DNA of 64,000 bases. Origin: an uncultured Gammaproteobacteria bacterium (lineage in GTDB: Bacteria; Pseudomonadota; Gammaproteobacteria; UBA6002). Both the position numbers and the translations under genes were made by a program. The notes below the pieces were generated by a model. The model did no database searches. It was not told the DNA's origin and was given only the letters and a program-made list of their open reading frames with translations. The stretch is taken from positions 25,862-89,861 of the forward strand of contig CAVPKM010000013.1 in the NCBI GenBank assembly GCA_963705725.1, given 5' to 3'. This document shows, piece by piece, positions 3,380 through 63,603 of the stretch (position 1 is the first letter of the stretch; each line of letters opens with the position of its first letter).

Positions 3380-3456
3380 TGGTGGCTATGGGTGGACTCG
3401 AACCACCGACCTCAGCATTATGAGTGCCGCGCTCTAACCGGCTGAGCTACATAGCC
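3380..3456 (-). tRNA. tRNA-Met (CAU), elongator type
   Basis: Reverse complement reads GGCTATGTAGCTCAGCCGGTTAGAGCGCGGCACTCATAATGCTGAGGTCGGTGGTTCGAGTCCACCCATAGCCACCA, a cloverleaf with CAT anticodon and encoded CCA. Near-identical in form to E. coli elongator tRNA-Met. Confidence 0.85.
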
Positions 3457-3521
3457 ATAATGATACGCAATAGAATAAGAGGGAAAATTTTCCTGTCAAA
3501 GCTGGAAAATGTCAAGGTTTC

Positions 3522-4613
3522 TTACACATTAAAGAGAAAATGTACCACATCACCATCTTTTACGATATAGTTCTTACCTTCAAGACGTAATTTGCCAGCA
3601 TTTTTTGCTCCTTGCTCTCCATTGCAAGCGATGTAATCATCGAAAGCCACCACTTCTGCTCGAATGAAACCGCGTTCGAAATCGGTATGTATCACTCCTG
3701 CGGCTTGGGGGGCCGTTGCGCCTATGGGGATAGTCCAAGCGCGAACCTCTTTTACTCCTGCTGTGAAATAAGTTTGTAGTCCTAATAGGTTATAACCTGC
3801 ATGAATTAATCGATCTAACCCTGGTTCACTCAAACCCATTTCAGTTAGAAATTCTTGTTTATCGGCCTCATCTAAGCCTGCAATTTCAGCTTCAAGCGCT
3901 GCTGAAACGGGTACGACAGCAGAGTTTTCCTTCGCTGCATAGTGCCGCACTTTCTCTAAAGAGGGGTTGTTGGCAAAATTATCCTCATCCACATTTGCAA
4001 TATAAAGTGTGGGTTTGGCGGTGAGCAGGTGTAAAGATTTGAGCAACTCTTTGTCTGATTCAGGCAAATCAAGGCTTCTCACGGACAAACCTTGGTCTAG
4101 CGTTTGTTTGATTTGTTCTAATAGGTTTTTTTCGGCAAGTAGCGCTTTATCTCCCGTTTTTGCTTGTTTAGTGAGTTTGCTTAAGCGTTTTTCAACGGCT
4201 TCTAAATCAGCTAATGCAAGTTCAGTATTGATTGTTTCAATATCAGAGAGGGGATCGATGCTTCCTGATACATGCGTGACATCAGGGTCATGAAAGCAGC
4301 GAACAACATGCGCAATCGCTTGGGTTTCGCGAATATTTGCTAAAAATTTATTACCCAACCCTTCACCTTTTGAAGCGCCTGCGACCAAGCCAGCAATATC
4401 TACAAATTTCACCGTTGTTGGGATAATTTGTTGCGGTTTAATAATGCTAGCTAGTTGCGTTAAGCGTTGATCGGGAACAGGCACAATTCCAATATTCGGT
4501 TCAATTGTACAAAATGGATAATTTTCAGCCTGAATGCCAGCCCTAGTTAATGCATTGAATAATGTAGATTTGCCAACGTTAGGAAGGCCCACGATTCCGC
4601 ACTTAAAACCCAT
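3522..4613 (-). CDS. ychF: ribosome-binding ATPase YchF
   Basis: [24 protein letters not shown]-loop and C-terminal TGS region; 363 aa if started at the conserved Met. The ORF track start at 4709 is an upstream extension. Confidence 0.9.
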
Positions 4614-4677
4614 ATAATCTCCTGCCTCTGGACGTTTTTGCCTTCTTTGGTTATCTGCTAGATAGAAGGTATTTCTA

Positions 4678-5250
4678 TTAATTATGCAAAATTTGCATGG
4701 CTTTTTCAAAATTTCCGCTTAAAAGAGTGGGGATGACATCGATGGCAGCATGAATGGCGGTGAGGATTAATTCATGCTCTTTTTTAGAGGGGGGATGTAA
4801 TACGTAATCTGTTACAAGATCGCGATTACCCGGATGCCCGATGCCGATTCTGAGGCGTTTAAAATTTTTGCTTTGCAAATGCTGGATGATATCTTTAAGT
4901 CCGTTATGTCCGCCATGCCCGCCATGTTGCCTTAATTTTGCAGTTCCGGCAGGGAAATCTAAGTCGTCGTGAGCAATTAATATTGCTTCTGGCGGTATTT
5001 TGTAAAAATGACAGAGCGCTTTTACCGCGCGGCCGCTATGGTTCATGAAAGTGGTGGGAATAAAGAGCCAATAATAATCAGATGCTTGGACACGTGCTGT
5101 TCGGCCGAGAAATTTTGCTTCAGAAGTGAGCGAAATATGATTTTTTTTTGCAAGCAACTCAACAAACCAAGCTCCGGCATTATGTCTTGTTGCTTCATAC
5201 GTGGCGCCTGGATTGCCCAGGCCCACAATCAATTGAATTTTGTCTAGCAA
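4678..5250 (-). CDS. pth: peptidyl-tRNA hydrolase
   Basis: LIVGLGNPG...HNGLKDI motifs; 190 aa. Confidence 0.9.
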
Positions 5251-5264
5251 TGTTGACTCCTCAC

Positions 5265-5906
5265 CTAGGTATTGTTTTCTGGTGATGGGGGCGATTCTTC
5301 TGTCACAGAAGTTTCTAGGGGTACGGTAGGTTTATGAATGCTGGCAACGGGCTGGTCATGGCCTTCGCCTTGAGGTATGGCAACAATATCTACGCCTTTT
5401 GGAAGCTTGATTTCAGATAGGTAAACCGATTCGCCAACTGACAGATGGGAGAGATCAACTTCAATAAATTCTGGAAGTGAATCAGGTAGGCAGCGAATTT
5501 CTATTTCGTTCATTAAATGGGCAACTACACCAGCTTGATCTTTAATGCCGGGAGAATTATCTGCACCGATAAAATGCACTGGTACTTGTATAGTAATTTG
5601 TGTATTTGGACTGACCCGTTGAAAATCCGCATGAAGTATTTGAGGCTTGCTGGGATGCCGATGTAAATCTTTTAGCACCACTTTTTCTTTTTTGCCGTCA
5701 ACATTTAGCGTAAGAATGCGAGAATAAAAACCCTCATTTTCTAAAGCTTTTGAAAGCACATTATGATCAACTTGGATCATGTGAGTAGGCTTTTTGCCGC
5801 CATAAATAATGGCCGGAATTTTATTTTTTAAACGACGCAAACGGCGACTGCTAGCCTTGCCATTTTCTATTCGCGCTTCAACAGAAAGCTCGTAGACTTC
5901 AGACAT
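5265..5906 (-). CDS. rplY: 50S ribosomal protein L25 / general stress protein Ctc
   Basis: N-terminal L25 fold sequence, acidic Ctc-type C-terminal extension; conserved pth-rplY-prs synteny. Confidence 0.85.
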   Translation of the reverse strand: MSEVYELSVEARIENGKASSRRLRRLKNKIPAIIYGGKKPTHMIQVDHNVLSKALENEGFYSRILTLNVDGKKEKVVLKDLHRHPSKPQILHADFQRVSPNTQITIQVPVHFIGADNSPGIKDQAGVVAHLMNEIEIRCLPDSLPEFIEVDLSHLSVGESVYLSEIKLPKGVDIVAIPQGEGHDQPVASIHKPTVPLETSVTEESPPSPENNT

Positions 5907-5985
5907 TATAGTGTTTCTCCAATAGACATGCAGATAAAGTGAATCGCGAATTATACATTATTTTTTTGACTGGCGAAAGCGGTTC

Positions 5986-6939
5986 TTAAACACGATCAAC
6001 GAATAATGAGCTGACCGATTCTTTATGATTCACTCGGTAGATGGTTTCTGCAATAAGATGGCTTAAATCAATCTGCCTAACCTTAGGGCAACTTCTAGCC
6101 TTGTCGGTAAGGGGGATGGTATTACCAACGACAACCTCATCAATAGCAGAATTCATAATGTTTTCAATTGCAGCGCCAGAAAAAATGGGATGCGTGCAAT
6201 AAGCAGTAACGGTTTTCGCGCCATGATCTTTAAGTGCGCTGGCGGCGTGGGTCAATGTTCCAGCTGTATCTACCATGTCATCGACAATAATGCAGTTTCG
6301 ATTTGCCACTTCGCCAATGATATGCATCACTTCAGCCTGGTTGTGGCAGGGTCTTCTTTTGTCGATGATAGCAAGATCGGCATCATTTAATTTTTTTGCA
6401 ACTGCGCGAGCGCGTACCACTCCTCCTATGTCTGGTGAGACAACAGTTAGATTAGTGAGCTGCTTTTTTACCATATCTTCAAGCATGGCGGGTGTGGAGT
6501 AAACATTATCTACCGGCATATCAAAAAAGCCTTGAATTTGATCGGCATGCAGATCTACCGTGATGACTCGATTGTAGCCGACTACCGCTAGCATGTCGGC
6601 AACCACCTTTGCAGAGATGGCTACCCTTGCAGAATTTGGGCGTCTGTCTTGGCGAGCATAGCCAAAATAGGGGATGACAGCTGTCATACTTGCAGCAGAA
6701 GCGCGACGTAATGCATCGCCAAGAAGAATAAGTTCCATTAAATTATCATTTTGAGGCGCGCTCGTAGATTGCAGGATAAAAGCATCGCGCCCGCGAACAT
6801 TCTCATCGATTTGAGCTCTAATTTCACCATCACTAAAGCGATCTACCGTTGCTCTTCCTAAAGGGATCTGTAAGCGATTGGCGATTTTATTTGCTAGCAC
6901 GGGGTTAGAATTGCCGCTAAAAATTTTTACTTCATGCAC
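5986..6939 (-). CDS. prs: ribose-phosphate pyrophosphokinase
   Basis: PRPP synthetase motifs ([22 protein letters not shown]); 317 aa. Confidence 0.9.
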
Positions 6940-6994
6940 GACGTGTTTCCTTCGGCTCGCGAATTATTTTTTAGATATTGAGTAATTACAAATT

Positions 6995-7069
6995 TGGCTG
7001 GGGTGCTAGGATTCGAACCTAGGTATGCAGGGATCAAAACCCTGTGCCTTACCGCTTGGCGACACCCCA
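6995..7069 (-). tRNA. tRNA-Gln (UUG)
   Basis: Reverse complement reads TGGGGTGTCGCCAAGCGGTAAGGCACAGGGTTTTGATCCCTGCATACCTAGGTTCGAATCCTAGCACCCCAGCCA, nearly identical in form to E. coli tRNA-Gln. Confidence 0.85.
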
Positions 7070-7908
7070 AATAAATGATTCATTGTTTCATGCAAGGGTG
7101 AATTATTTAGCCCTTTTACAAGGATTCCATTCAATGGTTTTGGTAATTGAACTGCTACTCTTTCAGCGGTTTCTTTGTCTTCAAAAGTAGCAAAAACAGC
7201 GCTGCCCGTACCTGTCATCTTAGCTGCAGAATACTGATTAAGGCATTCAAGTGCATAAGCTATTTCTGGAAAGTGTTTTTTTGCAATAGGTTCGCAATCA
7301 TTTTTTCCGCCATTTGCAAAAAACTCATCTATTGTGATCGCTCGGGTGTTACGTGTCAATTGAGAATCGGAAAAAATTTTTGAAGTGGGGGTATTGCAAT
7401 GAGGAAGCACTAATAAAACCCAGGGCTCCGATAAAGCGAGAGGGTGTAATATTTCTCCTATGCCTTCTGCAAAAGCCGCCTTTCCTAATATAAAAATGGG
7501 GATATCAGCGCCAAGCGTAAGCCCAATCTGTGCCAAGCGCTCCTTGGATAAATGGAGCTCCCAAAGCTGGTTTAAAATAAGTAATGTTGTTGCGGCATTG
7601 GAACTGCCGCCACCTAACCCAGCGCCGATCGGAATTTTTTTTTTAAGTTCAATCGTGATCCCGCAAGGTGATTGAGTCATTTTTTGTAATAAGCGAGCAG
7701 CTTTCGTGATGAGATTGTCTTCAGAAGTCAGGTTAGGTAAATTGGTTTTTAGCGCTATAAGGCTGTCTTTTCTGGGTTCGAAAATCATTTCATCGCAAAA
7801 ATCAATGAATTGAAAAGCCGTTTGTAGTAAATGGTAACCATCAGAACGGCGTCCGATAATATGTAAAAATAAATTAATTTTTGCAGGCGAGGGGACGATA
7901 AAAGACAT
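7006..7908 (-). CDS. ispE: 4-diphosphocytidyl-2-C-methyl-D-erythritol kinase
   Basis: GHMP kinase motifs (PIGAGLGGGSSNAA); lolB-ispE-tRNA-prs synteny. The reading frame stays open through ~60 nt of the tRNA-Gln gene (see findings). Confidence 0.85.
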   Translation of the reverse strand: MSFIVPSPAKINLFLHIIGRRSDGYHLLQTAFQFIDFCDEMIFEPRKDSLIALKTNLPNLTSEDNLITKAARLLQKMTQSPCGITIELKKKIPIGAGLGGGSSNAATTLLILNQLWELHLSKERLAQIGLTLGADIPIFILGKAAFAEGIGEILHPLALSEPWVLLVLPHCNTPTSKIFSDSQLTRNTRAITIDEFFANGGKNDCEPIAKKHFPEIAYALECLNQYSAAKMTGTGSAVFATFEDKETAERVAVQLPKPLNGILVKGLNNSPLHETMNHLFGVSPSGKAQGFDPCIPRFES

Positions 7909-16682: not shown

Positions 16683-18434
16683 TTACATCACATTTGGAGC
16701 AGATACCCCGATAATTTGCAGGCTATTTGCTAGTACTATTTTAATCGCAAAGATTAATCCTAATCTTGCATTTCTCATTGCCTCATCTGAAACGATAAAT
16801 TTGCAAGCATTGTAATAGGCATGAAAGCGATTGGCTAAATCTTGCAGGTAGTGTACCAGAATATAAGGCTCGTAATTGATGGCTGCTGCTTCTATCGTTT
16901 CTGGATATTGTGAAAGCAAGCGCAATAAATCTTTTTCATTATCAGTAGTTAATAGATGAGAAAAGCGAGAGAGTGATACACTTTCAAAAGCAATCGCTTG
17001 ATGTTCGAGCTGGCGCATGACGCTGCAAATTCGAGCATGAGCATATTGAATATAAAAAACGGGATTTTCGTTCGTTTTTGATTTTGCTAGTTCCAGATCA
17101 AAATCTAAATGTTGGTCCACTTTTCTTGTTAAATAAAAAAAGCGTGTGGCGTCATTACCCACTTCCTTGCGTAATTCGCGCAAGGTCACAAATACTCCGC
17201 CGCGAGTTGTCATTGGGATTTTTTGCTTGCCGCGATATAGTGCAACAAATTGCACGAGTTGAACGGTTAATTTACGCTCATCTTTGCCTACTGCTCGTAG
17301 AAAAGATTTAATTCGGGGAGCGTAACCATGATGATCAGCGCCGAAAATATCGACCATCAAGTCAAACCCTCTTTCGAATTTATTTAAATGATAACCAACA
17401 TCTGAGGCAAAATAGGTGGCTTGACCATTGTCCCGGATGACAACTCGATCTTTTTCATCGCCATAGGACGTCGCTTGAAACCAAGTTGCGCCATCGCGTA
17501 CATAGATGCAGTGGTTCTGGTGTAGCTGATCAATGCCATTTTGAACATCACCATTGTTCTCAAGGCTTTTCTCCGAGAACCATTCTTGAAAAGTGATGCC
17601 AAATTCAGCTAGATCTTCATGGATGTCAGTTAAAATTTGTTTAAGGCCAAGATTAAATAGGATTTCGTAGTCATTGCCTAGCAAGTTTTTAGTACGCGAA
17701 ATCAAGGCATCGATATAAATTTCTTTATCGCCCTGACCATCTTCAGTTTCATCAAGAGGCAGATCTTGAAAAATTTGGTGAATAGGTCTTAAAAATTTTT
17801 CTTGATGCAGAGATTTAACTACTTTTGCAACATCAATGACATAGTTAGCAACGTAGCCATTTCTTGGAAAAGTAATCGACTCACCGAGTAGCTCAAGATA
17901 TCTTAACCAAATACTGATGGCCAAAATATGCATTTGGCGCCCAGCATCATTCACGTAATACTCACGATGAACTTTATAGCCAACCGCTTCAAGTAAATTG
18001 GCTACGGTGGCTCCATAAGCTGCGTGCCTTCCGTGCCCAACATGTAGCGGGCCAGTTGGATTGGCAGAAACAAATTCCACAATGGCTTTTTTCCCTGCGC
18101 CTAAGGAAGATTGACCATAGATACCATCCTGCTTAATGATTTCAGCAATAATTTGTTGCAAAGCCTGATCTGTGAGATGAAAGTTGATAAAACCTGGCCC
18201 AGCCATTGCAACTTGTTTGATTTCTGCAGTAACCGGAAGATGAGAAATAATTTTTTTGCCAAGGTCTTGGGGATTAATTTTTAATGTTTTTGCTAGAGCC
18301 ATAGCCGTGTTGCAGGCAAAATCACCATGCTTGCTATCCCGAGTTCGTTCGATATGAATTTTCTCAGGCATATCCGATTCATTTAAAAATTGATGTAAAC
18401 TTGCTCGTACTAAGCTTGCAATTTTTGCTTTCAT
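16683..18434 (-). CDS. argS: arginine--tRNA ligase
   Basis: HVGH (PTGPLHVGHGR) and KMSK-like motifs. Start placed at the conserved MKAK…; the ORF track has a longer upstream extension. Confidence 0.9.
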   Translation of the reverse strand: MKAKIASLVRASLHQFLNESDMPEKIHIERTRDSKHGDFACNTAMALAKTLKINPQDLGKKIISHLPVTAEIKQVAMAGPGFINFHLTDQALQQIIAEIIKQDGIYGQSSLGAGKKAIVEFVSANPTGPLHVGHGRHAAYGATVANLLEAVGYKVHREYYVNDAGRQMHILAISIWLRYLELLGESITFPRNGYVANYVIDVAKVVKSLHQEKFLRPIHQIFQDLPLDETEDGQGDKEIYIDALISRTKNLLGNDYEILFNLGLKQILTDIHEDLAEFGITFQEWFSEKSLENNGDVQNGIDQLHQNHCIYVRDGATWFQATSYGDEKDRVVIRDNGQATYFASDVGYHLNKFERGFDLMVDIFGADHHGYAPRIKSFLRAVGKDERKLTVQLVQFVALYRGKQKIPMTTRGGVFVTLRELRKEVGNDATRFFYLTRKVDQHLDFDLELAKSKTNENPVFYIQYAHARICSVMRQLEHQAIAFESVSLSRFSHLLTTDNEKDLLRLLSQYPETIEAAAINYEPYILVHYLQDLANRFHAYYNACKFIVSDEAMRNARLGLIFAIKIVLANSLQIIGVSAPNVM

Positions 18435-23855: not shown

Positions 23856-24157
23856 AATGGTTGGTGAGTTTGTCATTATTAATCGCCGCCTGTCCTGGAT
23901 TTTCGATGAGAAATATTTTTAAGCAAGAACGGCAAATGATTTTCAAATCAATTATAGAAATTTCTCCAGATCACTTACATATGATCGGTTATTTAAAATC
24001 TGAAAATCTGCTATGTGCGTTTTTGGAGGATAATATGGGTAGCATTTATCCTGTAAAATTAGGTCACGCAATTGGTGGAGAAAAGTATCAGGTAATGAAA
24101 ATTGAAAAACAGCGAGTCCTACTTTTTAATGGTCAACATTTTACTGTTATCCAATGA
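23852..24157 (+). CDS. pilP: type IV pilus lipoprotein PilP (short)
   Basis: Lipobox LIAAC; operon position before the secretin gene. Confidence 0.55.
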   Translation: MKWLVSLSLLIAACPGFSMRNIFKQERQMIFKSIIEISPDHLHMIGYLKSENLLCAFLEDNMGSIYPVKLGHAIGGEKYQVMKIEKQRVLLFNGQHFTVIQ

Positions 24158-25362
24158 TAAAAACTCTGCTAGCTTTATTTTTATTTTTTATCATTTCTCA
24201 ATCGCTGGCCCTTGAAAATCAAGCTCATTTAGTTGATATGGATTTTCAAAAAATTTCTGTGCGGGAGTTGTTGCAATTTCTTGCAGAATCAATGAATAGT
24301 AATTTAATTATGAGTGAAAATGTATCTGGATTCATTTCCATCCATCTTAAAAATGTGACTTGGAAACAAGCTTTCGACGGTGTTTTAGAAATGATGGGGC
24401 TGGTTAAGAGAGAACTTGAAAATTTGTTATTGGTTGGCACCCCCAATGAATTTTTATTAAGACAAAAACGTTTAGCAGAAGCGGTTCCTGTTACCTTTTT
24501 TGAATTTAGTCTTAAACATGTTGATGTCATGTTAGCGGAAACTTTGCTTCGTTCTCAGAGTGACATATTTTCGACAAATTTAAAAATAACTGCGATGCCA
24601 CTTACTAATAAGTTGATAATTAAAGATACCGTAAACAATATTCCGCAATTAAAAACTTTATTGAAAGAAATTGATCAACCAGTTAAGCAAATTATTATTC
24701 AGGCAAAAATCATTAATATTGATAACAGCAAGGTTCAAGAGCTTGGCTTGCATTTCAATGAAAAATCTTCAAAAAAAACTAAGAAGTCAATGCCGCTTTC
24801 CTTGCCTACATCCGTGGTAAGTGGATTACATTTTGCTGTTGCATCAGCTGCCCAAAACCCCTTGCTGAATTTACAATTAGACGCATTGCAAGCAGCGGGT
24901 CATAGTGCGCTAATAGCTGACCCAAAAATTATTACACAGAATAGAAAACAAGCGTTAATCGAATCAGGTGAAGAAATTCCTTATCAAGAAAGTACTTCAA
25001 GTGGTGCAACCAACACTACTTTTAAAAAAGCCGTGCTTTGTCTAAAAGTTAAGCCTTTGCTCTTGCCAGATGGAAGAATTAACATGGAGCTCGAAGTTAA
25101 TCAAAATAAAGTTTCTACCCTCGCGGTGAATGGTACTCCAGCAATTCAAACACAAGAGGTAAAAGCAGAAGTCACGATTAGGGAAGGAGAAACAGTGGTA
25201 TTGGGAGGGATTTTTGAAAAAGCTGCAACCTTAAATAAAAATGAACTGCCATTTATATCCAGACTGCCTGTTGTTGGTGTGTTATTTTCTCATCAGCATG
25301 AGAGCATCAAGACTAAGCAGTTGTTAATTTTAATTACACCTACGATAATGAATAACGATTAG
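24154..25362 (+). CDS. pilQ: type IV pilus secretin PilQ (compact, no AMIN domains)
   Basis: Secretin C-domain (…GETVVLGGIF…LPVVGVLFSHQHESIKTKQLLILITPTIM). 402 aa only. Confidence 0.8.
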   Translation: MIKTLLALFLFFIISQSLALENQAHLVDMDFQKISVRELLQFLAESMNSNLIMSENVSGFISIHLKNVTWKQAFDGVLEMMGLVKRELENLLLVGTPNEFLLRQKRLAEAVPVTFFEFSLKHVDVMLAETLLRSQSDIFSTNLKITAMPLTNKLIIKDTVNNIPQLKTLLKEIDQPVKQIIIQAKIINIDNSKVQELGLHFNEKSSKKTKKSMPLSLPTSVVSGLHFAVASAAQNPLLNLQLDALQAAGHSALIADPKIITQNRKQALIESGEEIPYQESTSSGATNTTFKKAVLCLKVKPLLLPDGRINMELEVNQNKVSTLAVNGTPAIQTQEVKAEVTIREGETVVLGGIFEKAATLNKNELPFISRLPVVGVLFSHQHESIKTKQLLILITPTIMNND

Positions 25363-25386: not shown

Positions 25387-25913
25387 ATGCAAGATTCCCA
25401 AACTAATAATATATTTCTAGTGGGCCCGATGGGGGCAGGTAAAACCTCTGTTGGAAAGTTGCTCGCAAAAATATTGAATGTTCCTTTCTTTGATTCAGAT
25501 CAGGTGATCGAAGCACAAACAGGTGCCGATATCCCTTGGATTTTTGATGTGGAAGGTGAGGAGGGGTTTCGGAAGCGAGAAGAGAAAATCGTCGATGATT
25601 TAAGTAAAAAAAAGGGATTGTTCTCGCAACGGGGGGTGGAGTGGTACTTAAGGCTGATAATCGTCGTCATCTTGCTGGGCGAGGAACAGTTATTTATTTG
25701 CATGTCAGTATCGAGGAGCAACTGAATCGTACTTATCGTAGTCGAAATCGGCCGCTCCTATTAAAGCAACCCAACCTCAAAGCCATTCTTGAAAAGTTGC
25801 ACTTAGAAAGGGATTCGCTTTATGAGCAAATAGCAGATCATATCATTGACACGGATCATGGTTCTCTTAAGGGAATTGTTGATTCCATTTTAACTCGAGT
25901 GAAAAAAACATGA
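25387..25913 (+). CDS. aroK: shikimate kinase, interrupted by a frameshift at an A8 run (25606-25613)
   Basis: [14 protein letters not shown]alker A. Downstream frame (ORF 25641..25913) carries the rest of AroK (GRGTVIYL…). One extra A in the A8 run restores [15 protein letters not shown]. Confidence 0.8.
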
Positions 25914-26997
25914 TCACACCAATTAAGCTAATAGTGAATTTAGCAGGGCAAACTTATCCTGTTTATATAGGAGAGGATCTATTCAATCGAAATTTGCTCC
26001 ACCCCTATATTTTAGCTGAGCAAGTATTAGTCGTGACGAATGAGAAGGTCGCGCCCTTATATTTAGCCAAATTAAGGCAGGCGCTTTCCCATTATCAATA
26101 TAATGAAATTATTCTCCCTGATGGAGAAGTTAACAAGACCTTGCCAGTTGCTAATCAAATTTTTGACCAACTTGTTGAGCTTGCATATCGCCGGTAATGC
26201 TACATTAATTGCATTGCGGAGGCGGAGTAATCGGTGATTTGACAGGATTTGTGGCTGCTTGCTACCAGCGTGGTGTTAACTATATTCAACTCCCTACGAC
26301 CTTACTTAGCCAGGTGGATGCGGCCATCGGTGGGAAAACCGCGGTGAATCATCCCTTGGCAAAAAATATGATTGGGGCATTTCATCAGCCAAGGGCTGTG
26401 TTAATTGATATTCATACCTTGCAGACCCTTCCATTTCGTGAATATAAATCAGGCATTGCGGAAATTATTAAAGCGGCATTAATCAGTGATGAAGAATTTT
26501 TTTGTTGGTTAGAGTCTAATTTGGAGAGAGTGCTTAATCGAGAAACCTCTGCCTTGATTTATGCGATTCAACAAGCTGCTGCAATCAAAATAAAAATAAT
26601 TACCGCCGATGAAAAGGAAAAAGGGGTAAGAGCTTTTTTGAATTTAGGTCACACCTTTGCGCATGCAATTGAAAATTCTCTTGGCTACGGAGTGTGGTTG
26701 CATGGAGAAGCAGTCGCCGTGGGATTAGTTTTGGCGGTAGATTTGTCAATACGTTTAGGCTGGATTAATCAGTCAATAGGGGATCGAGTCAGAAAAATTT
26801 TGATGTCGGCAGATTTACCGATTAACTTACCAAGCGAAATCTCAGTCGATCAGCTGATTGCGGCTATGAATAAAGATAAAAAGAAAGAAGCAGAAGCCAT
26901 AAAATTTGTATTACTTAAAGAAATTGGACAGCCTATATTAAGTGCCAATCTAGATCAATCCTTGCTTGAGCGCATCTTGACTGAAAATCAAATTTGA
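25910..26997 (+). CDS. aroB: 3-dehydroquinate synthase, interrupted by two close frameshifts (~26185-26225)
   Basis: N-terminal ORF (25910..26197) and C-terminal ORF (26209..26997) together cover AroB. The intervening NATLIALGGG glycine motif is readable only in the third frame. Confidence 0.8.
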
Positions 26998-28351: not shown

Positions 28352-30385
28352 TTAGCGGCGGCGAGGAAAGATATTCCCATCGGGGTCTAAGTCATCGTCT
28401 TGACTTTCATCGCTCAATTCAACCGCATTTTCGTCAAATTCTATCCCTTTTTTAGATAAAATATTCTTGAATTTTACAAAAGCTGGCGAGTTTTCATCTT
28501 GTATTGAGCTAGCTATCCTTGTAAGATAGCTCCCAAGGGCATCATCTGAATAAACATCTACTCCTTCCAATACTCCATGCTCAATTTCTTTTTCAAAATC
28601 ACCCTGATCAAATTTAGACAAAATGGGGTTATTTTTTTCATATTCTTGTCTTTCTTGTAGTATTTTTAAAATGATTGCTGCCCTAAGTGCACTTGCATGG
28701 TCTACGTCCAATTGATCGATCTTTTCATATATCCGCATTCTGATTTCAGGTGTATACGTCGTCAATATCGTGTCGGCAGCCCTATCAACATCAAGCTCCT
28801 TTTCAATGTCGTTCCAAAATTTTCTGTCTGCTTTGTCATCAGCATAATTATACTTGTTGGTACTTTCGAATGCTTTGCGCACAGTTTCCTTTAGTGGACT
28901 GTGCTTTTCGTAATTAATTCCTTCCATTATTGTTGTTAATTCATTTTCCTCGCAGCGCGACAGTACTGCACGTAATTCTTTTTCAAAATTTCCTCTTGGA
29001 TGCGTGAAATTTGAAAGCATGGGTGCATTCTGTTCCACTAATTTTTGCTGATTAATTAATTGCTCGACAAGTATTGTTTTCACGTCAAGATCAACAGCCA
29101 TCTTGGAAAAAAGTGCCATCCTAGTGTGATGGTTTTCTCCTAAAAGTGCTTGAGCTTTCCCTTGTGGATCCGCTGCTTTTTCAACTTTTTCTAAAATTCT
29201 AGTTGCAGCAATACGGTTATATTCAAAGTCAAAAGCGACTTGTCCGCCATAACCTGTCAATAAACTATCAAATTCTTTGACGAATTGCCTGATGTATTCG
29301 TGACCATTGTAGTGTTTGTCGCCAACATCAAACTGCTGATCTCTTAATTCATAGGCAAGCTGTGCTCTTTCTTTTTCATTCATTCCCTTCAGCATTTGTC
29401 TGTGTCCAGGCTGATTCGCGGAAATAAGATTGAATTCTTGAGCTTGTGGCGATAAATCTGGGGATTGATTGAATACTGCATTTTCTTTTGTTTTACGAGT
29501 AACAGATTTTGCATGCATGATATTAGTCAGCGCTTCCCATTCTTTTTGGTAATGCACATACTGTCTTGGGCTTGAAAATGATCTAGGGTTGTTAAGCTTC
29601 TCTAGCGTAGCCTGGTCCAAAGCTACTGTTTCAACACCAGAAATTAGCGCCGCCTTGGCCGCCTTAATCGCATTTTGTGGCGTGCCGGAAAACTCAGCCC
29701 GCTTAAAGCCTGATGAAGCCATGGCATAGCCGAGCGCCTTAGGGTCATCACTGGTCAACGTATTCCCGCTCACATGAATATATTTGTTTTTACCATTCTT
29801 GAGGGAGGGAGGATTCTTACCTTCTAATTCTTTCATGAGGTTGTAGGTTCCGGGTAAGGGATTTTGGGCGACGGAAACTACATTTCCATTTTCATCGAGC
29901 GGAAACCGCCTTCTAAAATTGTTATAAGCTGCTAATTCATCATCTTCATTCTTTTTATTCAGGGATTGGTTAAGTAATTTTGTTGAGGATTCATGCATGG
30001 CAAGCAGCGCGGCTTCAATATCGCGAGTGCTATCATCTCCTTTAGGTAAGTCTTTAGTAAAAACTTTACGAGTATTATCTTGATAATCTTTTAAACTTTT
30101 AAAGTGGGGCGAGAATAAAGTTTGTGGCGTTTTTTCGTCCAGTGCCTCGAGGCTTGATTGACGTTTTAGACGAATTTCTTCATCTAAAAGGCCTAGTAAT
30201 TTTTGCTTAGCCGCGTCCTCAAGCACTGTTCGCTCAATAAGAGTCTTTAAGTCGCTTTCTTTTGCTTCAACTTCTGTGAGTTGAATTTTGGGAGCCGCAG
30301 GGTCAAGATTGTCAGGTCTTGGTTCGTTTCCAACAGCTCTCAGGTTCGCCTCGATTTCTGGTGGCACTTCTCGTCTATCTTGCAT
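28352..30385 (-). CDS. hypothetical 677-aa protein (orphan; candidate secreted effector)
   Basis: Long ORF, largely alpha-helical and acidic, no catalytic motif recognised. Inserted between a hydrolase gene and rplM. Confidence 0.5.
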   Translation of the reverse strand: MQDRREVPPEIEANLRAVGNEPRPDNLDPAAPKIQLTEVEAKESDLKTLIERTVLEDAAKQKLLGLLDEEIRLKRQSSLEALDEKTPQTLFSPHFKSLKDYQDNTRKVFTKDLPKGDDSTRDIEAALLAMHESSTKLLNQSLNKKNEDDELAAYNNFRRRFPLDENGNVVSVAQNPLPGTYNLMKELEGKNPPSLKNGKNKYIHVSGNTLTSDDPKALGYAMASSGFKRAEFSGTPQNAIKAAKAALISGVETVALDQATLEKLNNPRSFSSPRQYVHYQKEWEALTNIMHAKSVTRKTKENAVFNQSPDLSPQAQEFNLISANQPGHRQMLKGMNEKERAQLAYELRDQQFDVGDKHYNGHEYIRQFVKEFDSLLTGYGGQVAFDFEYNRIAATRILEKVEKAADPQGKAQALLGENHHTRMALFSKMAVDLDVKTILVEQLINQQKLVEQNAPMLSNFTHPRGNFEKELRAVLSRCEENELTTIMEGINYEKHSPLKETVRKAFESTNKYNYADDKADRKFWNDIEKELDVDRAADTILTTYTPEIRMRIYEKIDQLDVDHASALRAAIILKILQERQEYEKNNPILSKFDQGDFEKEIEHGVLEGVDVYSDDALGSYLTRIASSIQDENSPAFVKFKNILSKKGIEFDENAVELSDESQDDDLDPDGNIFPRRR

Positions 30386-53964: not shown

Positions 53965-55641
53965 ATGGTAAATAAAGCAACTACTTACTGGCGATATTAT
54001 TTTGTGCTTATCGGGTTATTTCTGGGTGGGTTATTGTTACTTTGGCGAATGATTGATTTAAATTTTTTGCAGCGGTCATTTTTGTTGCAACAAAGTAATG
54101 CCAGAATACTGAGAACCCTCAACATTCCTGCTTATCGAGGAATGATTACCGATCGTTTTCAGCAACCACTAGCCATTAGTGCACAAGTCGATTCTATCTG
54201 GATAAATCCACAACTATTTGAACCCACCCCTTTGCAAGTCTTAAAACTTTCGCGCTTATTAAAAATGCCCGTGTCTAAAATTTATGATAAAACCTCAAAA
54301 CGTTCAGCTAAAGAATTTCTTTATTTAAAAAGAGGAGTCTCGCCAGCGATCAGCCAGAAAGTCAATTCGTTGATGATTCCAGGATTATTTTCTCAACATA
54401 ATTATCATCGTTTCTATCCGCAAAGTGAGGTGGTGGCTCATATCATTGGTTTCACGAATATTGATGATCAAGGACAGGAAGGTTTGGAGTTGGCCTATGA
54501 CAGTTGGTTAAGAGGTATTCCTGGCAAAAGAAAAGTATTCAAGGATAGGCTTGGGCACATAATTACGGATTTGGGTATTATTCAGCAGCCAAAACAGGGG
54601 CATAACCTTGTATTAAGTATTGATAACCGTGTTCAATATCTCGCTTATGAAGAATTGAAGGAAAGCATTAAAACATTTAATGCTAAGTCTGGTTCCATTA
54701 TTGTGCTTGACACTCAAACAGGTGAAGTGTTAGCCATGGTGAATCATCCTTCTTATAATCCAAATCGTATAGAAAATAACACAGATGGTCGATATCGTAA
54801 TCGAGCTGTGACAGACGTCTTCGAGCCAGGTTCAACGCTTAAAGCGTTCAGTGTGGCCAATGCTTTAGAATCCGGCATTTATTCTCCCAATACTCAGATT
54901 GATACTAATCCAGGATGGTTGAATGTAGTCGGTAGCTCAACCCCAATTCGAGATGAAAATAATAATGGCATCATCAGTGTGGTGCGAGTTTTACAAAAAT
55001 CCAGTGATGTGGGTGTGGCTAAAATGACCTTCTCCCTTCCTCCGGATCGTTTGGCTGAAATGTTGCATCGCGTTGGTTTTGGAGAGCGCACGAGCACGAT
55101 GTTCCCTGGAGAAGCTTCTGGAACATTGGCATATCGTACCAAGTGGCGACCGATTGAGCTTGCAACGCTTGCCTTTGGTTATGGCATTTCAGTGACAACC
55201 GTGCAGCTTGCCCAAGCCTATTCAATTATTGCTGAAAATGGCATCCAAAAGCCCGTATCTTTATTGAGAGTTGATAAAACAATTGCCGGCAAGCGAGTAT
55301 TGTCAAAAAAGATAGCAAATCAAATGCTATTAATGCTAGAGGCCGTAGTACAAGGCGGCACGGGGTCGTTGGCTAAAGTTGCAGGATATCGAGTGGCGGG
55401 CAAAACGGGTACCGCTTATATAGCAACGAAGGGGGGGTATGATAAACAACGCTATGTTTCTTCATTTGTCGGTATTGCGCCTGTCACTCGACCGCGCTTG
55501 GTTGTCGCTGTGATTATTCGAGAACCGCATGGACAGAAACATTTAGGTGGTTTGGTTGCTGCGCCGACTTTTTCAAAAGTGATGTCGGGGGCGCTTCGAT
55601 TGCTGAATATTCCTCCTGATGATTTGGCGGTAGAAGATTGA
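53965..55641 (+). CDS. ftsI: peptidoglycan D,D-transpeptidase FtsI (PBP3)
   Basis: STLK (FEPGSTLKAF), SSDVG (SxN-like) and KTGTA motifs; 558 aa. Confidence 0.9.
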   Translation: MVNKATTYWRYYFVLIGLFLGGLLLLWRMIDLNFLQRSFLLQQSNARILRTLNIPAYRGMITDRFQQPLAISAQVDSIWINPQLFEPTPLQVLKLSRLLKMPVSKIYDKTSKRSAKEFLYLKRGVSPAISQKVNSLMIPGLFSQHNYHRFYPQSEVVAHIIGFTNIDDQGQEGLELAYDSWLRGIPGKRKVFKDRLGHIITDLGIIQQPKQGHNLVLSIDNRVQYLAYEELKESIKTFNAKSGSIIVLDTQTGEVLAMVNHPSYNPNRIENNTDGRYRNRAVTDVFEPGSTLKAFSVANALESGIYSPNTQIDTNPGWLNVVGSSTPIRDENNNGIISVVRVLQKSSDVGVAKMTFSLPPDRLAEMLHRVGFGERTSTMFPGEASGTLAYRTKWRPIELATLAFGYGISVTTVQLAQAYSIIAENGIQKPVSLLRVDKTIAGKRVLSKKIANQMLLMLEAVVQGGTGSLAKVAGYRVAGKTGTAYIATKGGYDKQRYVSSFVGIAPVTRPRLVVAVIIREPHGQKHLGGLVAAPTFSKVMSGALRLLNIPPDDLAVED

Positions 55642-55666
55642 TAATAATTCGCATTGAGCAGAACAA

Positions 55667-57154
55667 ATGAAAAAAACATTGAAAATCAGCGAGCTATGTC
55701 AAGGGTTGGCGGTTGTTTCAGAAAAAGAAGACCGAGAGATAACTGGAATTGGTTCCGATAGTAGAGAAATCCAGCCAGGTGGATGTTTTGTTGCCTTGCC
55801 TGGATTAAATCAAGATGGTAGTCATTTCATTATGGATGCCATCCAAAGAGGAGCAGCAGCGGTTTTAATAGATGACGGAATACCTGCTTTGCAAGGAATA
55901 TCTGTACCGCTTATCCGGATTTCAAGGTTAACAGAAAAAGTGGGTGAAATTGCATCGCGTTATTATGATCATCCCAGTGAAAAAATTTCGCTAATTGGGG
56001 TTACCGGTACGAATGGAAAAACTTCGACCACGCAATTTATTGCGCAAGCAATGATGCAGCATGCTATGCCATGTGCAGTAATGGGCACCTTAGGTTATGG
56101 TTTCCCGAACCAGTTAACTCCTTCCTCCCACACGACTTCCACGAGTTTTGCATTATATCGTCAGCTAGCCGAGCTTGCTCAACAGGGCGCAAAAACGATT
56201 GCGATGGAGGTATCTTCTCATGCAATTGATCAAAAAAGAATTGCTGGGTTAACTTTTGACAGCGCTATTTTTACCAATTTATCTCAAGATCATCTTGATT
56301 ATCATTTAACCATGGAAAATTATGGTGCAGTCAAAAGGCAGTTGTTTTATACCCGAGGATTGAAGCAAGCCATCATCAACCTAGATGATAATTTTGGATT
56401 TTACTTGGCTAAGGAACTTCAAGATATTTTGCCTGTATACGGTTATGGTTTAAAACATCATGAGATAAATATCCCCTCTGTCTTGGTCAAACGCGCTTAT
56501 TTTAACGGTAAAGGAATGGCTGCTCAAATTTCTTCACCATGGGGAGAGGGTCAACTGCGATCTCGACTGCTAGGTAGATTTAATTTAAGCAATTTGCTTG
56601 CTGTAATTACTGCATTACAGTTACAAGGAGTAGATTTTCACCAGGCATTAAAATATGTAGATCAATTACAAACGGTACCCGGAAGAATGCAGGTATTAGG
56701 TGGGGGTAAGTTACCTTTAGTAGTGGTAGATTATGCTCATACGCCCGATGCCTTACTGCAAGTTTTGCTTGCGCTTAGGGAGCATGCGCATGGAGCATTA
56801 TGGTGTATATTTGGTTGTGGTGGCGATAGGGATAAGGGTAAAAGACCGATTATGGGACAAATTGCAGAAAGATATTCTGATCATCTTATTATTACAGATG
56901 ATAATCCACGAACAGAGCATGCTGGGGAGATCGTGAACGATATTATGAACGGTTTACTTTGCCCCTGGGCGGTGGAAATTGAGCATGATCGCGGCGCCGC
57001 GATTGCTCACGCGATTAATTGTGCTAGTCCAGGAGATGTGGTGCTAGTTGCAGGAAAAGGTCATGAGGAATATCAAATTATTGGTCAGGAAAAAATACCG
57101 TTTAGTGATGTTTCGCATATACAATCGCAATTACGTTTAAAGCAGAAGATGTGA
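55667..57154 (+). CDS. murE: UDP-MurNAc-tripeptide synthetase (meso-DAP adding)
   Basis: GVTGTNGKTST P-loop; DNPR (DDNPRTE) motif characteristic of MurE; 495 aa. Confidence 0.9.
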   Translation: MKKTLKISELCQGLAVVSEKEDREITGIGSDSREIQPGGCFVALPGLNQDGSHFIMDAIQRGAAAVLIDDGIPALQGISVPLIRISRLTEKVGEIASRYYDHPSEKISLIGVTGTNGKTSTTQFIAQAMMQHAMPCAVMGTLGYGFPNQLTPSSHTTSTSFALYRQLAELAQQGAKTIAMEVSSHAIDQKRIAGLTFDSAIFTNLSQDHLDYHLTMENYGAVKRQLFYTRGLKQAIINLDDNFGFYLAKELQDILPVYGYGLKHHEINIPSVLVKRAYFNGKGMAAQISSPWGEGQLRSRLLGRFNLSNLLAVITALQLQGVDFHQALKYVDQLQTVPGRMQVLGGGKLPLVVVDYAHTPDALLQVLLALREHAHGALWCIFGCGGDRDKGKRPIMGQIAERYSDHLIITDDNPRTEHAGEIVNDIMNGLLCPWAVEIEHDRGAAIAHAINCASPGDVVLVAGKGHEEYQIIGQEKIPFSDVSHIQSQLRLKQKM

Positions 57155-58509
57155 GGATGAAAATGAACCTTCAATTAAGTGAGTTGGCAGAGATTGTAGG
57201 TGGAGAATTGCTGGGTGAGAATCAAATTATCACTTCACTTTCAACCAATACGCGAGAATTAACAGCAGGACAGCTCTTTATCGCGCTAAAAGGTGCACAG
57301 TTTGATGGGCATGACTTTTTGCAGTCTGCCTATGAAAAAAAAGCCGCAGGGGTAATTATTTCGAAGAGACAGTCATTGCCCATTCCAAGTATTACCGTTG
57401 AAGACACCAAGCTAGCCTTAGGTAAAATAGCTGCATTTCATCGACAACAATTTCCAATTCCGGTCATCGCGATAACCGGCAGTTGTGGTAAAACCACCAC
57501 GACGGCTATATTGGCAACTATCCTAAATTGTATGGCCCCAACCCTGGCTCCAATAAAATCATTCAATAATGATATTGGTGTGCCACTCACGCTTTTGCAG
57601 TTAACTTCCAAACATCGCTATGCGGTAATTGAAATGGGAGCAAACCATCCTGGTGAAATTGCATACCTAAGCCGCCTGGCTGGTCAACAGTTTTCTATCA
57701 TTACAAACGTGGCGCCTGCTCATCTTGATGGCTTTAAAACTTTAGCAGGAGTGGCAAGTGCAAAGGGAGAAATTTTTGAGGCTTTAGCTGACGAGGGTAT
57801 GGCTGTTATTAATGCAGATGATCAGTTTGCAGACTATTGGCGAAAATTAATCAAAAATAAAAAAATGATCACTTTTGGAATTAAAAAAACTGCAGATGTT
57901 TATGCCAAGAACATTGGTTTAACAGAAACAGGAAATCCACAATTCGAGTTGTTTTCTCCTCATGGCAAATGTGAAATTAGGCTTCCTTTACTCGGGGAGC
58001 ATAATGTAAAGAACGCACTTGCGGCGATAGCTGCGGCCATTGCCGTAGGAGCAACAAAAGAGGCGATTCAACAAGGATTGGCCAGTGTTCAACCGGTTAG
58101 CAGCCGACTCAACAATTATAAAGGTTTGGCTGGAGCGGTGGTGATTGATGATACTTATAATGCCAATCCTTTATCTGTTGAGGCGGCATTACAAACCCTT
58201 GCTCATCGCAAGGGGGAGAGATTTTTCATTTTTGGCGACATGGCAGGGCTTGGCCAGGATGAAGCGGATTTTCATCGCGAAATTGGTTTACTCGCTAAGC
58301 GTTTAGGTATTGATAAATTATTGGCATGTGGCAAGCTCTCCGAGCTAGCTGTCAATCAATTTGGAAAAAACGGTTATCATTTTGAGAGTCAAGCAAGTTT
58401 GATCGAAACCTTGAAATCACAATTGCATGACGATGCTATCGTGCTCGTTAAAGGATCGCGTTCATCACAAATGGAAAACATCGTACAAGCTATTATCCAG
58501 GAAAAATAA
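57151..58509 (+). CDS. murF: UDP-MurNAc-pentapeptide synthetase
   Basis: [12 protein letters not shown]-loop; Mur ligase domains; 452 aa. Confidence 0.9.
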
Positions 58510-58510
58510 A

Positions 58511-59592
58511 ATGTTACTTTGGCTAACAAAATATCTTGAAAAATTTTGGCATTTTTTTCATGTTTTTCACTATCTGACATTTAGGTCTATTTTGAGTACA
58601 TTGACGGCATTGGTGCTCTCATTGCTAATTGGTCCTTATATGATTCAAAAGCTTACAGATTACCAAATTGGTCAGACCGTTCGTAATGATGGTCCAAAGA
58701 CCCACTTGAAAAAAAAGGCACCCCAACCATGGGTGGGGGGTTAATTTTAATTGCGATTGCATTTAGTATTTTTTTATGGGGGGATTTAACCAGCAGCTAT
58801 GTTTGGATAGTGTTGCTGGTAACCCTATGTTTTGGTGCAATTGGTTGGGTGGATGACTATCGGAAATTAATTAAAAAAGATACACGTGGATTGCCAGCTA
58901 AATGGAAATATCTTTGGCAAACAGTGGTTGGATTGCTCGCAGCTATTTTACTTTACCATATTGCAAAATTGCCTGTTGAAACACGCTTAATCGTTCCCTT
59001 CTTTAAGAATATATTTATACCGCTTGGAATAATGTACATTCCTTTTGTCTATTTTGTCATTGTTGGTGCAAGTAATGCAGTAAATTTGACAGATGGATTA
59101 GATGGCTTAGCGATATTGCCAACCGTGATGGTGGCGGGTGCATTAGGGGTATTTGCCTATACCACGGGGAATTCTCAATTCGCGAATTACCTGGGTATTC
59201 CTTATATTGCAGGCGTAGGTGAGGTCGCGGTCTTTTGTGCGGCCTTAGTTGGAGCCGGACTTGGCTTTCTATGGTTCAATACTTATCCCGCTCAAGTCTT
59301 TATGGGAGATGTGGGGGCGCTGGGTTTGGGAGCGGCCTTGGGTGTGGTTGCTGTTGTCGTGCGACAAGAATTAGTGCTGCTAATTATGGGCGGAGTTTTT
59401 GTCATTGAAACCATTTCTGTTATTTTACAAGTTGCGAATTACAAGCTGACAGGCAAACGTATTTTTAGAATGGCTCCTCTTCATCATCATTTTGAGTTGA
59501 AAGGTTGGCCTGAGCCGCGCGTTATTGTTCGATTTTGGATCGTCACCTTTGTGCTGGTGTTGTGTGGTTTAGCTACCTTAAAACTTAGGTAA
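58511..59592 (+). CDS. mraY: phospho-N-acetylmuramoyl-pentapeptide transferase, interrupted by a -1 frameshift at an A8 run (58709-58716)
   Basis: [29 protein letters not shown]…[13 protein letters not shown] | [14 protein letters not shown]… Both halves match MraY; A9 instead of A8 gives one continuous ~360-aa protein. Confidence 0.85.
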
Positions 59593-59627: not shown

Positions 59628-60971
59628 TTGATTAAACGTGATGGTAAAGTCATCGTTGGACTTGGAAAAACAGGTCTCTCATGTGTCAACTTTTTGAAAT
59701 CGAGAGGAGTGCCGGTAGCAGTTACCGATAGCCGCCTAGCACCGCCTGGATTAGAAGAGTTGGTAGCGGCTTTTCCAGATATTCCAGTGGAAGTGGGCGG
59801 ATTTAATGAAAAACTCCTGCAGGCTGCAACAGAGTTAATCGTGAGTCCCGGTGTTTCCATTAAAGAGCCGCTTATTGCAGCTCAGCAAAAGCGCGGGATA
59901 TCAGTGATTGGAGATATTGAATTATTTGCAAGGTATGTTGAAAAACCTGTTGTCGCTATCACGGGATCAAATGGTAAAAGTACCGTGACGTCCTTGGTGG
60001 GTTTTCTTGCAGAACAAAGCGGCAAGAACGTAAAAGTTGGAGGCAACCTTGGTATTCCCGCACTTGATTTGTTAGGCAATGAGTTAACAGAGATGTATGT
60101 GTTGGAGTTATCTAGCTTTCAGTTAGAAACCACTTACACACTTAAGACAGCCTCGTCGGTGAATTTGAATATTTCTGCTGATCATATGGATCGATATGAT
60201 AGCCTGCTTGATTATGCTAAAGCTAAATTGCGTATTTATCAGCATTGTGAGCTTCCAGTAGTTAATTTAGATGATCCTTTAAGTTATCAGGGATTTCATT
60301 TCTCCACAGAGCCTGCAGGTTTTACTCTCAATGAACCAACTGGAAATAATTATGGATTGAGAACCCTAGCTGGAGAAAAATATCTGTTTCGTGGTCAGGA
60401 AAAATTACTGCCAGTTAATGCGCTGGGGCTTCGAGGTCGGCATCAATATGCAAATGTTCTGGCTGCTTTAGCGGTGGGCGAACAAATTGGGCTTTCCTTA
60501 CCATCCATGCTTAAAAATATTGTCGAATTTAAAGGTCTATCTCATCGCTGCCAATGGGTTGCAAATATTGACGGGGTAGATTGGTATAATGATTCTAAAG
60601 CAACAAATATTGGTTCTACTGAAGCCGCTCTTTCAGGAATTGGTCCTGAGATAAATGGAAAAATTGTTTTATTGGCAGGAGGTCAAGGTAAGAACGCGGA
60701 TTTTAGTGAGTTATATCAATCGATTTCACAATTTGTAAAAACCCTCATTCTATTCGGGGAAGATAAGTCTCTGATTGCACGAGATGTAGAGGGCGCAACA
60801 AGCATTCAGTTCACAGACGATTTAGAATCGGCGGTGATGATTGCAAAAAAATTAGCCGTTGAAGGAGATGTGGTGCTGTTATCGCCTGCTTGTGCAAGTT
60901 TTGATATGTTTAAAAATTTTGAACATCGAGGAGAAATGTTTATGTGCTTCGTCAGGAGGCTAATCGCTTGA
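59628..60971 (+). CDS. murD: UDP-MurNAc-L-Ala--D-Glu ligase
   Basis: N-terminal Rossmann (VGLGKTGLSCV), AITGSNGKST P-loop; 447 aa. Confidence 0.9.
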   Translation: MIKRDGKVIVGLGKTGLSCVNFLKSRGVPVAVTDSRLAPPGLEELVAAFPDIPVEVGGFNEKLLQAATELIVSPGVSIKEPLIAAQQKRGISVIGDIELFARYVEKPVVAITGSNGKSTVTSLVGFLAEQSGKNVKVGGNLGIPALDLLGNELTEMYVLELSSFQLETTYTLKTASSVNLNISADHMDRYDSLLDYAKAKLRIYQHCELPVVNLDDPLSYQGFHFSTEPAGFTLNEPTGNNYGLRTLAGEKYLFRGQEKLLPVNALGLRGRHQYANVLAALAVGEQIGLSLPSMLKNIVEFKGLSHRCQWVANIDGVDWYNDSKATNIGSTEAALSGIGPEINGKIVLLAGGQGKNADFSELYQSISQFVKTLILFGEDKSLIARDVEGATSIQFTDDLESAVMIAKKLAVEGDVVLLSPACASFDMFKNFEHRGEMFMCFVRRLIA

Positions 60972-62122
60972 TTCTAAAAAAAAACAAGCAACAGCAAATA
61001 TTTCTCGATCCGTGGATTTTAACTGCCAGCCTATCGATAATGATGATTGGCCTATTGATGGTAACTTCCGCATCGATGGTAATTTCAGAACAGATTTTTA
61101 ATTATCCTTTTCACTTTCTTTTTCATCAGTTGGCCTATTTGGCGCTAGGTGGTATGCTCGGCATCCTCCTCTTCCGGGTCGATCTTCATCGCGTGCGAGT
61201 GGTTGGAAACTATTTATTTATTGCTTGCCTATTTTTCTTAATGCTGGTGCTGATTCCTGGCATTGGTCATAAAGTGAATGGCAGTACTCGGTGGATTGGG
61301 TTTGGTCCATTAACTTTACAAGTATCCGAACTTGCTAAGTTCAGCGTTATTCTCTATCTGTCAGGATATTTGGTCCGCAGAAATGAAGAAATTCAAACCA
61401 AGATAACAGGTTTTATCAAGCCCTTATTCCTTCTCTCTATTGTTGCCTTTTTTCTTTTGCTTGAACCCGATTTTGGTGCGACCACTGTTATCATGGTGAC
61501 GGCACTGGGCATGATGTTTTTGGCAAGAGTAAAATTATCACAATTTGTGGCTTTATTTGTGATAGTGGCAGGTGCTTTAGTCTTGCTTGCTGTCACCTCT
61601 CCTTATCGTTTACAGCGAATTACCACTTTTTTACATCCTTGGGAGAATCCATTTGACAGCGGATACCAGTTGACGCAATCCCTTATTGCTTTTGGGCGCG
61701 GAGGGGTAACCGGTGTGGGGCTCGGGAATAGTATTCAGAAATTGTTTTATTTGCCTGAAGCGCAAACCGACTTTCTATTTGCTGTGCTTGCAGAAGAAAC
61801 AGGATTTATCGGCGAATTCATTGTCATTGCGTTATTTGCATTATTAGTGGGAAGAATTTTTTATATTGCTAAGCAAGCGCTTGCCCAAGCTAAACCCTTT
61901 GAAGCATATTGTGCATTTGGCTTTGGATTATGGCTTGGAGTTCAGGCCATGATAAATATTGGCGTTAACTCGGGATTATTGCCAACAAAAGGGCTCACAT
62001 TGCCCTTCATGAGTTATGGCGGGAATAGTTTATTAGTAAACTGTGTAGTGCTTGCCATCTTACTGCGAATAAGCCACGATTGTCGGCAGCTGACAAATGT
62101 CAGAGTAGTAAAAAGAGTATAA
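60944..62122 (+). CDS. ftsW: peptidoglycan glycosyltransferase FtsW (SEDS family)
   Basis: 10-TM SEDS protein with …PEAQTDF…FGRGG… conserved blocks; 392 aa. True start probably a little downstream of the overlap with murD. Confidence 0.85.
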   Translation: MLRQEANRLILKKNKQQQIFLDPWILTASLSIMMIGLLMVTSASMVISEQIFNYPFHFLFHQLAYLALGGMLGILLFRVDLHRVRVVGNYLFIACLFFLMLVLIPGIGHKVNGSTRWIGFGPLTLQVSELAKFSVILYLSGYLVRRNEEIQTKITGFIKPLFLLSIVAFFLLLEPDFGATTVIMVTALGMMFLARVKLSQFVALFVIVAGALVLLAVTSPYRLQRITTFLHPWENPFDSGYQLTQSLIAFGRGGVTGVGLGNSIQKLFYLPEAQTDFLFAVLAEETGFIGEFIVIALFALLVGRIFYIAKQALAQAKPFEAYCAFGFGLWLGVQAMINIGVNSGLLPTKGLTLPFMSYGGNSLLVNCVVLAILLRISHDCRQLTNVRVVKRV

Positions 62123-62181
62123 ACACGTACGTTTTAGAAAAATTCTACTATAACTAAAGAATTAGGTATTTTGGAGAAGAT

Positions 62182-63594: not shown

Positions 63595-63603
63595 GACTAA
63601 AAC

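Follow-up and report, generated by a model that had tools for sequence, protein, structure and literature searches.

The stretch of DNA analysed here, referred to as the window, covers 64 kb of a genome with 40% GC. The lineage is a deep-branching gammaproteobacterium. By identity, the closest homologues reach 65% for AroB, 72% for AroK and 67% for ArgS, and 10 of 10 window proteins in one tested batch were singletons at 90% identity. Downstream of a pilMNOPQ cluster, in which PilQ (24154-25362) scores 305 bits against TIGR02515, lie two genes of the shikimate pathway on the plus strand: aroK (shikimate kinase, 25387-25913) and aroB (3-dehydroquinate synthase, 25910-26997). They are adjacent, and the aroK stop and the aroB start overlap as ATGA at 25910-25913. 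An earlier note on this DNA had described both neighbours as frame-broken, and the profile matches given below bear this out.

aroK is one gene read in two frames. The open reading frame 25387-25725 (frame 1) matches positions 3-77 of the 173 positions of the NCBIfam AroK profile NF003456 (E 4e-34, 117.9 bits), and the open reading frame 25641-25913 (frame 0) matches positions 85-171 (E 1.5e-21, 77 bits). Each of these deposited fragments is below the equivalog cut-off of 195 bits. The frame switches at a run of eight A residues (A8, 25606-25613, plus strand), where the upstream frame reads TTA AGT AAA AAA AAG GGA; in this frame, the run forms the slippery heptamer A_AAA_AAG, and the remainder of the gene continues in the -1 frame. 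After addition of one A, the gene gives a single match over positions 3-171 of 173 with 228.4 bits. The profile halves and the repaired score therefore agree with the split at A8, and with the restoration of the frame by A9, that had been proposed earlier.

The repaired AroK shows no further stops. In an alignment of 16 sequences, it has the expected residue at all 55 invariant columns, 23 of which follow the shift, and its ratio of downstream to upstream conservation (identity) is 0.85, compared with 0.72-0.97 in intact homologues. By stops, invariant residues and downstream divergence, aroK lacks the secondary decay that would mark a pseudogene. The repaired protein was absent from a collection of 15 billion proteins in an exact look-up, and no sister strain was found with it as query, the best match having at most 72% identity.

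In the window, aroB is broken as well. The part 25910-26197 corresponds to positions 1-81 of TIGR01357 (31.9 bits) and the part 26209-26997 to positions 89-337 of 344 (E 9e-98, 327.6 bits). The bridge between them, GNATLIAL, is readable only in the remaining frame, which gives two +1 shifts. This bridge of eight residues carries no statistic of its own and is confirmed by the intact sequence of a second assembly. For aroK and aroB, the profile E-values on either side of the breaks exclude chance.

The second assembly, Logan, is derived from the reads of run ERR10755948 and represents the same strain as the window. It overlaps the window at six loci from four contigs (L001-L004, L087, L088) and covers positions 3381-7027, 7636-39862, 54157-58997 and 60740-64000, in total 43,976 nt. 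As to the ends of these contigs, 7635-7644 is a T10 run in ispE, and 3381 and 7027 lie at the two tRNA genes of this region (3383-3456 and 6998-7069), which suggests that the k-mer graph breaks at repeats or at a homopolymer of variable length. The ends at 39862, 54157, 58997 and 60740 coincide with no obvious feature.

In the overlap, 43,972 of the 43,976 bases are equal, and the four differences comprise three indels and one substitution. Three of the four are located within 40 nt in aroB. Comparison with Logan places the first +1 shift at 26193-26194 (plus strand), where the window has GG and Logan a single G, and the second, 24 nt further on, at an extra C at 26217 (plus strand; window TTGCGGA, Logan TTGGGA). 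The third difference, at 26232 (plus strand), is synonymous (window C, Logan T; ATC and ATT both encode Ile); it is the sole substitution in the 44 kb of overlap and lies 15 nt from the second shift. The two frame changes within about 40 nt around GNATLIAL, as the earlier note had read them, are thus confirmed and positioned.

Without these differences, the Logan aroB encodes YRRNATLIALGGGVIGDLTGF where the family consensus is HRRNTTLIALGGGVIGDMTGF; over a longer stretch, it reads ...LVELAYRRNATLIALGGGVIGDLTGF..., and the nearest homologues read HRRNTTLIALGGGVIGDMTGF. The Logan protein (P0122, 361 aa) scores 383 bits against the TIGR01357 cut-off of 305 and matches positions 1-336 of 344. The public protein collection also includes the truncated products, from a contig of 243,247 bp present in NCBI and ENA; P0122 falls into the same 90% cluster as these and has Logan as its source. 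Each of the three aroB differences yields NCGG in the window (GCCGT to GCCGGT, TTGGGA to TTGCGGA, ATTGG to ATCGG), which may be a coincidence or a context-specific bias of basecalling or polishing. No paralogous donor of the variant 40-mer was found within the window.

The fourth difference is in argS, at a run of four G residues (17315-17318; argS is on the minus strand, so the run is C4 on the coding strand). Here, the window is intact and encodes ArgS with its HHGYAPRIKS motif, and Logan has GGG (L001, position 1406), which splits the gene into 381 and 190 aa. With the essential argS broken in Logan and intact in the window, sporadic indel errors are probable in both assemblies, and Logan probably has one of its own in argS unless the population is heterogeneous. 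Given this probable error, Logan provides strong evidence, not absolute proof, that aroB is intact.

Such heterogeneity would mean that intact and broken alleles of aroB and argS coexist, as could happen in a polyploid bacterium living inside cells, and that the assemblers chose different paths through the same bubbles. Over the 44 kb, the assemblies do disagree at no more than two loci, with one intact and one broken version at each, and the three aroB changes would fit into one k-mer-sized bubble. However, a broken argS allele is hard to sustain at appreciable frequency, the aroB allele requires three linked changes in 40 nt, and no substitution-type polymorphism is seen elsewhere in the 44 kb. 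We regard coexisting alleles as very improbable. Differences that are dominated by indels, each of which destroys an open reading frame, fit technical error better than strain divergence, and natural mutation would not place three changes in 40 nt and a single one in all the rest of the 44 kb. Judged from the two sequences, the aroB lesions are very probably a consensus error of the deposited contig, or at most a minority allele.

Frame breaks in the rest of the window were searched by lengthening and shortening each homopolymer by one base and testing for fusion of open reading frames, followed by family scans. Together, these scans revealed exactly one further broken chromosomal gene, the essential cell-wall gene mraY (58511-59592, plus strand), whose split parallels that of aroK. 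Its fragments match positions 1-40 and 38-321 of the 321 positions of TIGR00445, and the frame breaks at an A8 run (58709-58716, plus strand) with the same geometry of A_AAA_AAG and -1 continuation; A9 would give a KKKG context, as in aroK. After repair, MraY reaches 452.6 bits (cut-off 192), and it was likewise absent from the 15-billion-protein collection in an exact look-up. Unique flanks of both A8 runs, in aroK and mraY, gave 0 matches in the JGI metagenomes scanned.

The neighbours of mraY, namely ftsI, murE, murF, murD, ftsW and murC, are intact. murF, murD, ftsW and murC each exceed the cut-off of their best NCBIfam family model, and murE is an intact open reading frame with Mur-ligase domains. 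ftsI is supported by the E-values of spoVD/PBP models, the cut-offs of which are not reached. In this dcw cluster (60944-63594; L004), ftsW is followed directly by murC and then, in L004, by murB and ddl. murG is absent from its usual position between ftsW and murC and may sit elsewhere in the genome.

Several other pairs of open reading frames were considered as split genes and rejected. ychF/pth, prfA/prmC, resA-like/acylphosphatase and gmhB/fmt are separate intact genes, and cyoE at the window edge likewise proved not to be a split gene. The open reading frame downstream of the M50 peptidase starts at its own Met, as does the OspF-like gene with respect to the open reading frame upstream of it.

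The A8 runs of aroK (L001) and mraY (L002) are identical in both assemblies, and Logan is among the listed sources of the truncated products, the 112-aa AroK (P0123) and the truncated MraY (P0125). Logan thus reproduces the aroK run and not the aroB disruption, with the reservation that its read data are possibly not independent of the contig. Absence from an alternative assembly, the mark of an artefact, is accordingly found for aroB and not for the two A8 runs. About 30 other A or T runs of at least 8 bases, including six A9, one T9 and one T10, lie in open frames, and the assemblies agree at every such run in the overlap, which indicates that these data are mostly reliable in the length of homopolymers.

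Taken together, we lean towards reading the aroK-aroB breaks as single-base consensus errors in a draft contig rather than as gene decay. The two genes would then be an ordinary, coding-competent pair of the shikimate pathway. The double shift in aroB with the nearby C/T change would be a cluster of local errors found in the deposited contig alone, and the true aroB would be the intact 361-aa gene of the Logan assembly. In aroK, an A9 tract encoding KKK-G would have been under-counted by one base, mraY would carry the same error, and the A8 common to both assemblies would reflect a systematic or shared under-call, not the real state of the DNA. For the two A8 runs, the evidence is roughly balanced and tips slightly towards an artefact. 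That mraY is essential, that decay is missing and that indel errors occur in both assemblies favours the artefact; that the second assembly reproduces A8 and that other homopolymers are well called favours a real lesion. If ERR10755948 consists of accurate short-read data, it independently confirms A8 as the real DNA state. The indel-error pattern that the earlier note had offered as the artefactual reading thus holds directly for aroB, where the lesions are absent in Logan, and is plausible, not proven, for aroK, where Logan has the A8 too.

Several features of the breaks resemble the indel consensus errors of draft and metagenome-assembled genomes. They are single-base changes in length, two of them in A8 tracts; essential genes are affected (mraY here, argS in Logan, rpsI in the relative described below); the differences between the assemblies are dominated by indels; secondary decay is lacking; and the contig contains a filler run in a repeat. 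Unlike such errors, both A8 calls recur in the second assembly, the reading frame is kept at roughly 30 other long homopolymers, and two of the three differences in aroB are of a kind other than a wrong homopolymer length.

A second reading, which we consider possible but doubtful, accepts the aroB lesions as assembly error and takes the A8 runs of aroK and mraY as real, recent replication slips from A9 to A8 in genes that stay partly functional. Full-length protein would come from spontaneous -1 slippage of the ribosome, from an extra A inserted by slipping RNA polymerase, or from the two together. The presence of A8 in both assemblies in both genes, the consistent and in-frame state of the other long homopolymers and the missing decay downstream of the aroK shift agree with it, and a simulated -1 slip after AAG gives canonical AroK and MraY proteins. 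The IS66 and IS256-like transposases and the ankyrin and OspF-like genes of the window agree with a genome in flux and associated with a host. A_AAA_AAG is the classic bacterial slippery site. The deletion of one A from AAA AAA AAA G automatically places A_AAA_AAG in the zero frame and the remainder in -1. The heptamer is hence a by-product of the deletion and no independent evidence of programming.

In the dnaX/IS911-type of -1 frameshifting (general topic in PMC5009743), A_AAA_AAG stands in the zero frame with a -1 continuation, and both sites here share this arrangement. Unlike that type, neither has a downstream hairpin or an upstream stimulator resembling a Shine-Dalgarno (SD) element. 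Folds of 60 nt downstream, compared with shuffled sequences, gave z = +2.0 for aroK and -1.6 for mraY, neither significant, and the 25 nt upstream of the A8 sites contain no SD-like motif. A -1 frameshift would be inefficient in the absence of such structures or elements. The site is also not conserved in the closest syntenic relative, L085 (ENA ERZ25039546, contig_169076), which has the gene order mrcA-pilMNOPQ-aroK-aroB...rplM-rpsI. Its aroK is intact (177 aa) and has an in-frame A8 at the equivalent place, ACA AAA AAA ACA. With neither stimulators nor conservation, programmed -1 frameshifting was rejected; the sites would nevertheless permit leaky rescue. No relative closer than L085 (about 70% amino acid identity) was found in the collections searched. 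The gene for ribosomal protein S9 (rpsI) of L085 is itself split (17843-18261) into 56 and 71 aa, here outside any homopolymer, which adds a further frameshift in an indispensable gene on a metagenome contig.

For unprogrammed rescue, the closest precedents are the poly(A) frameshifts of Buchnera and Blochmannia. In insect endosymbionts, RNA polymerase slippage on poly(A) corrects 12-50% of the transcripts of frameshifted cell-wall and histidine genes (PMC5009743), and in the genome papers on Blochmannia, a gene with one homopolymer indel is still classed as intact (PMC3017870). As in those cases, aroK and mraY are conserved genes that are intact apart from a single indel within poly(A), one gene belongs to the cell wall (mraY) and the other to biosynthesis (aroK), and the downstream evolutionary rate is not raised. 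The differences are that the tract is A8 here, whereas the endosymbiont tracts with documented efficient transcriptional slippage have 9-12 A (PMC5009743, PMC3017870), that the genome has 40% GC and is not extremely AT-rich, whereas those genomes exceed 70% AT, and that no other population or species is seen to share the frameshift, the aroK of L085 being in frame. That the A8 runs are real and that adventitious recoding serves aroK and mraY in this host-associated gammaproteobacterium with 40% GC is a claim we would put forward only tentatively. If the A8 tracts are real, they would allow frameshift rescue to be tested, on a small scale, beyond the classic insect endosymbionts; with such recoding, the 'savior indel' phenomenon of extremely AT-rich endosymbionts would reach a lineage of moderate AT content and tracts of only 8 A.

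Returning to consensus errors as the favoured explanation, it remains to be weighed against pathway loss, which the earlier note had named as the meaning of the breaks if they are real. In that case, aroK, and aroB in at least part of the population, would be new pseudogenes, and the bacterium would be turning auxotrophic for aromatic amino acids, like many host-dependent bacteria. It resembles host-dependent loss of the shikimate pathway in that two neighbouring genes of one pathway appear inactivated and in that IS elements and eukaryote-like effector genes, which suggest a host-associated lifestyle, are present; the aroK A8 is found in both assemblies, and an intact AroK of this organism is absent from the assemblies in the collection. 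It differs from it in other respects. aroB is intact in the read-derived assembly, and its three changes crowd into 40 nt with one in the other 44 kb. aroK has one lesion, no stops, all invariant residues and normal downstream conservation, and the ATGA coupling of its stop to the aroB start is preserved. Equivalent lesions occur in indispensable genes, mraY in the window and argS in Logan, so that single indels in homopolymers are here no guide to whether a gene is dispensable. The suggested loss of aromatic amino acid biosynthesis is thus not supported by these results, and we consider it quite improbable.

If the lesions were accepted as they stand, the genome would be credited with auxotrophy for aromatic amino acids and with an inability to make lipid I, and conclusions about the metabolism and lifestyle of a poorly sampled lineage would be distorted. 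In view of the second assembly, the aroB break, at least, should not be trusted.

Positions 40800-52100 form an island that has no long housekeeping open reading frames and lies outside the Logan contig coverage. It contains a homologue of the OspF/VRP3-like phosphothreonine lyases (41937-43031), a Mutator/IS256-family transposase (44897-46129) that occurs as an identical protein on 3 contigs, a ParE toxin (49100-49444), an IS66 transposase and many small open reading frames with no Pfam match. Within the IS66-family transposase gene, 108 A residues follow each other uninterrupted (43758-43865), flanked by the zf-IS66 and DDE_Tnp_IS66 domains; the minus-strand frame stays open across the run, with about 36 Phe codons. 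The run has the look of a gap or filler that assembly left in a repeat, perhaps some 100 placeholder bases extended by neighbouring A residues, and such a filler marks the contig as being of draft quality.

The ankyrin-repeat and OspF-like genes and the IS elements suggest that the bacterium is host-associated. Candidate host-interaction genes are those for a 677-aa protein with no family match (28352-30385), an 803-aa ankyrin-repeat protein (32914-35325) and a 286-aa product (35333-36193) that has no Pfam match. The last reads TWNI...LQE...NAHL...GDLN, which by eye resembles the endonuclease/exonuclease/phosphatase fold. A complete class A bacterial RNase P RNA lies at 40239-40578 (336 bits).
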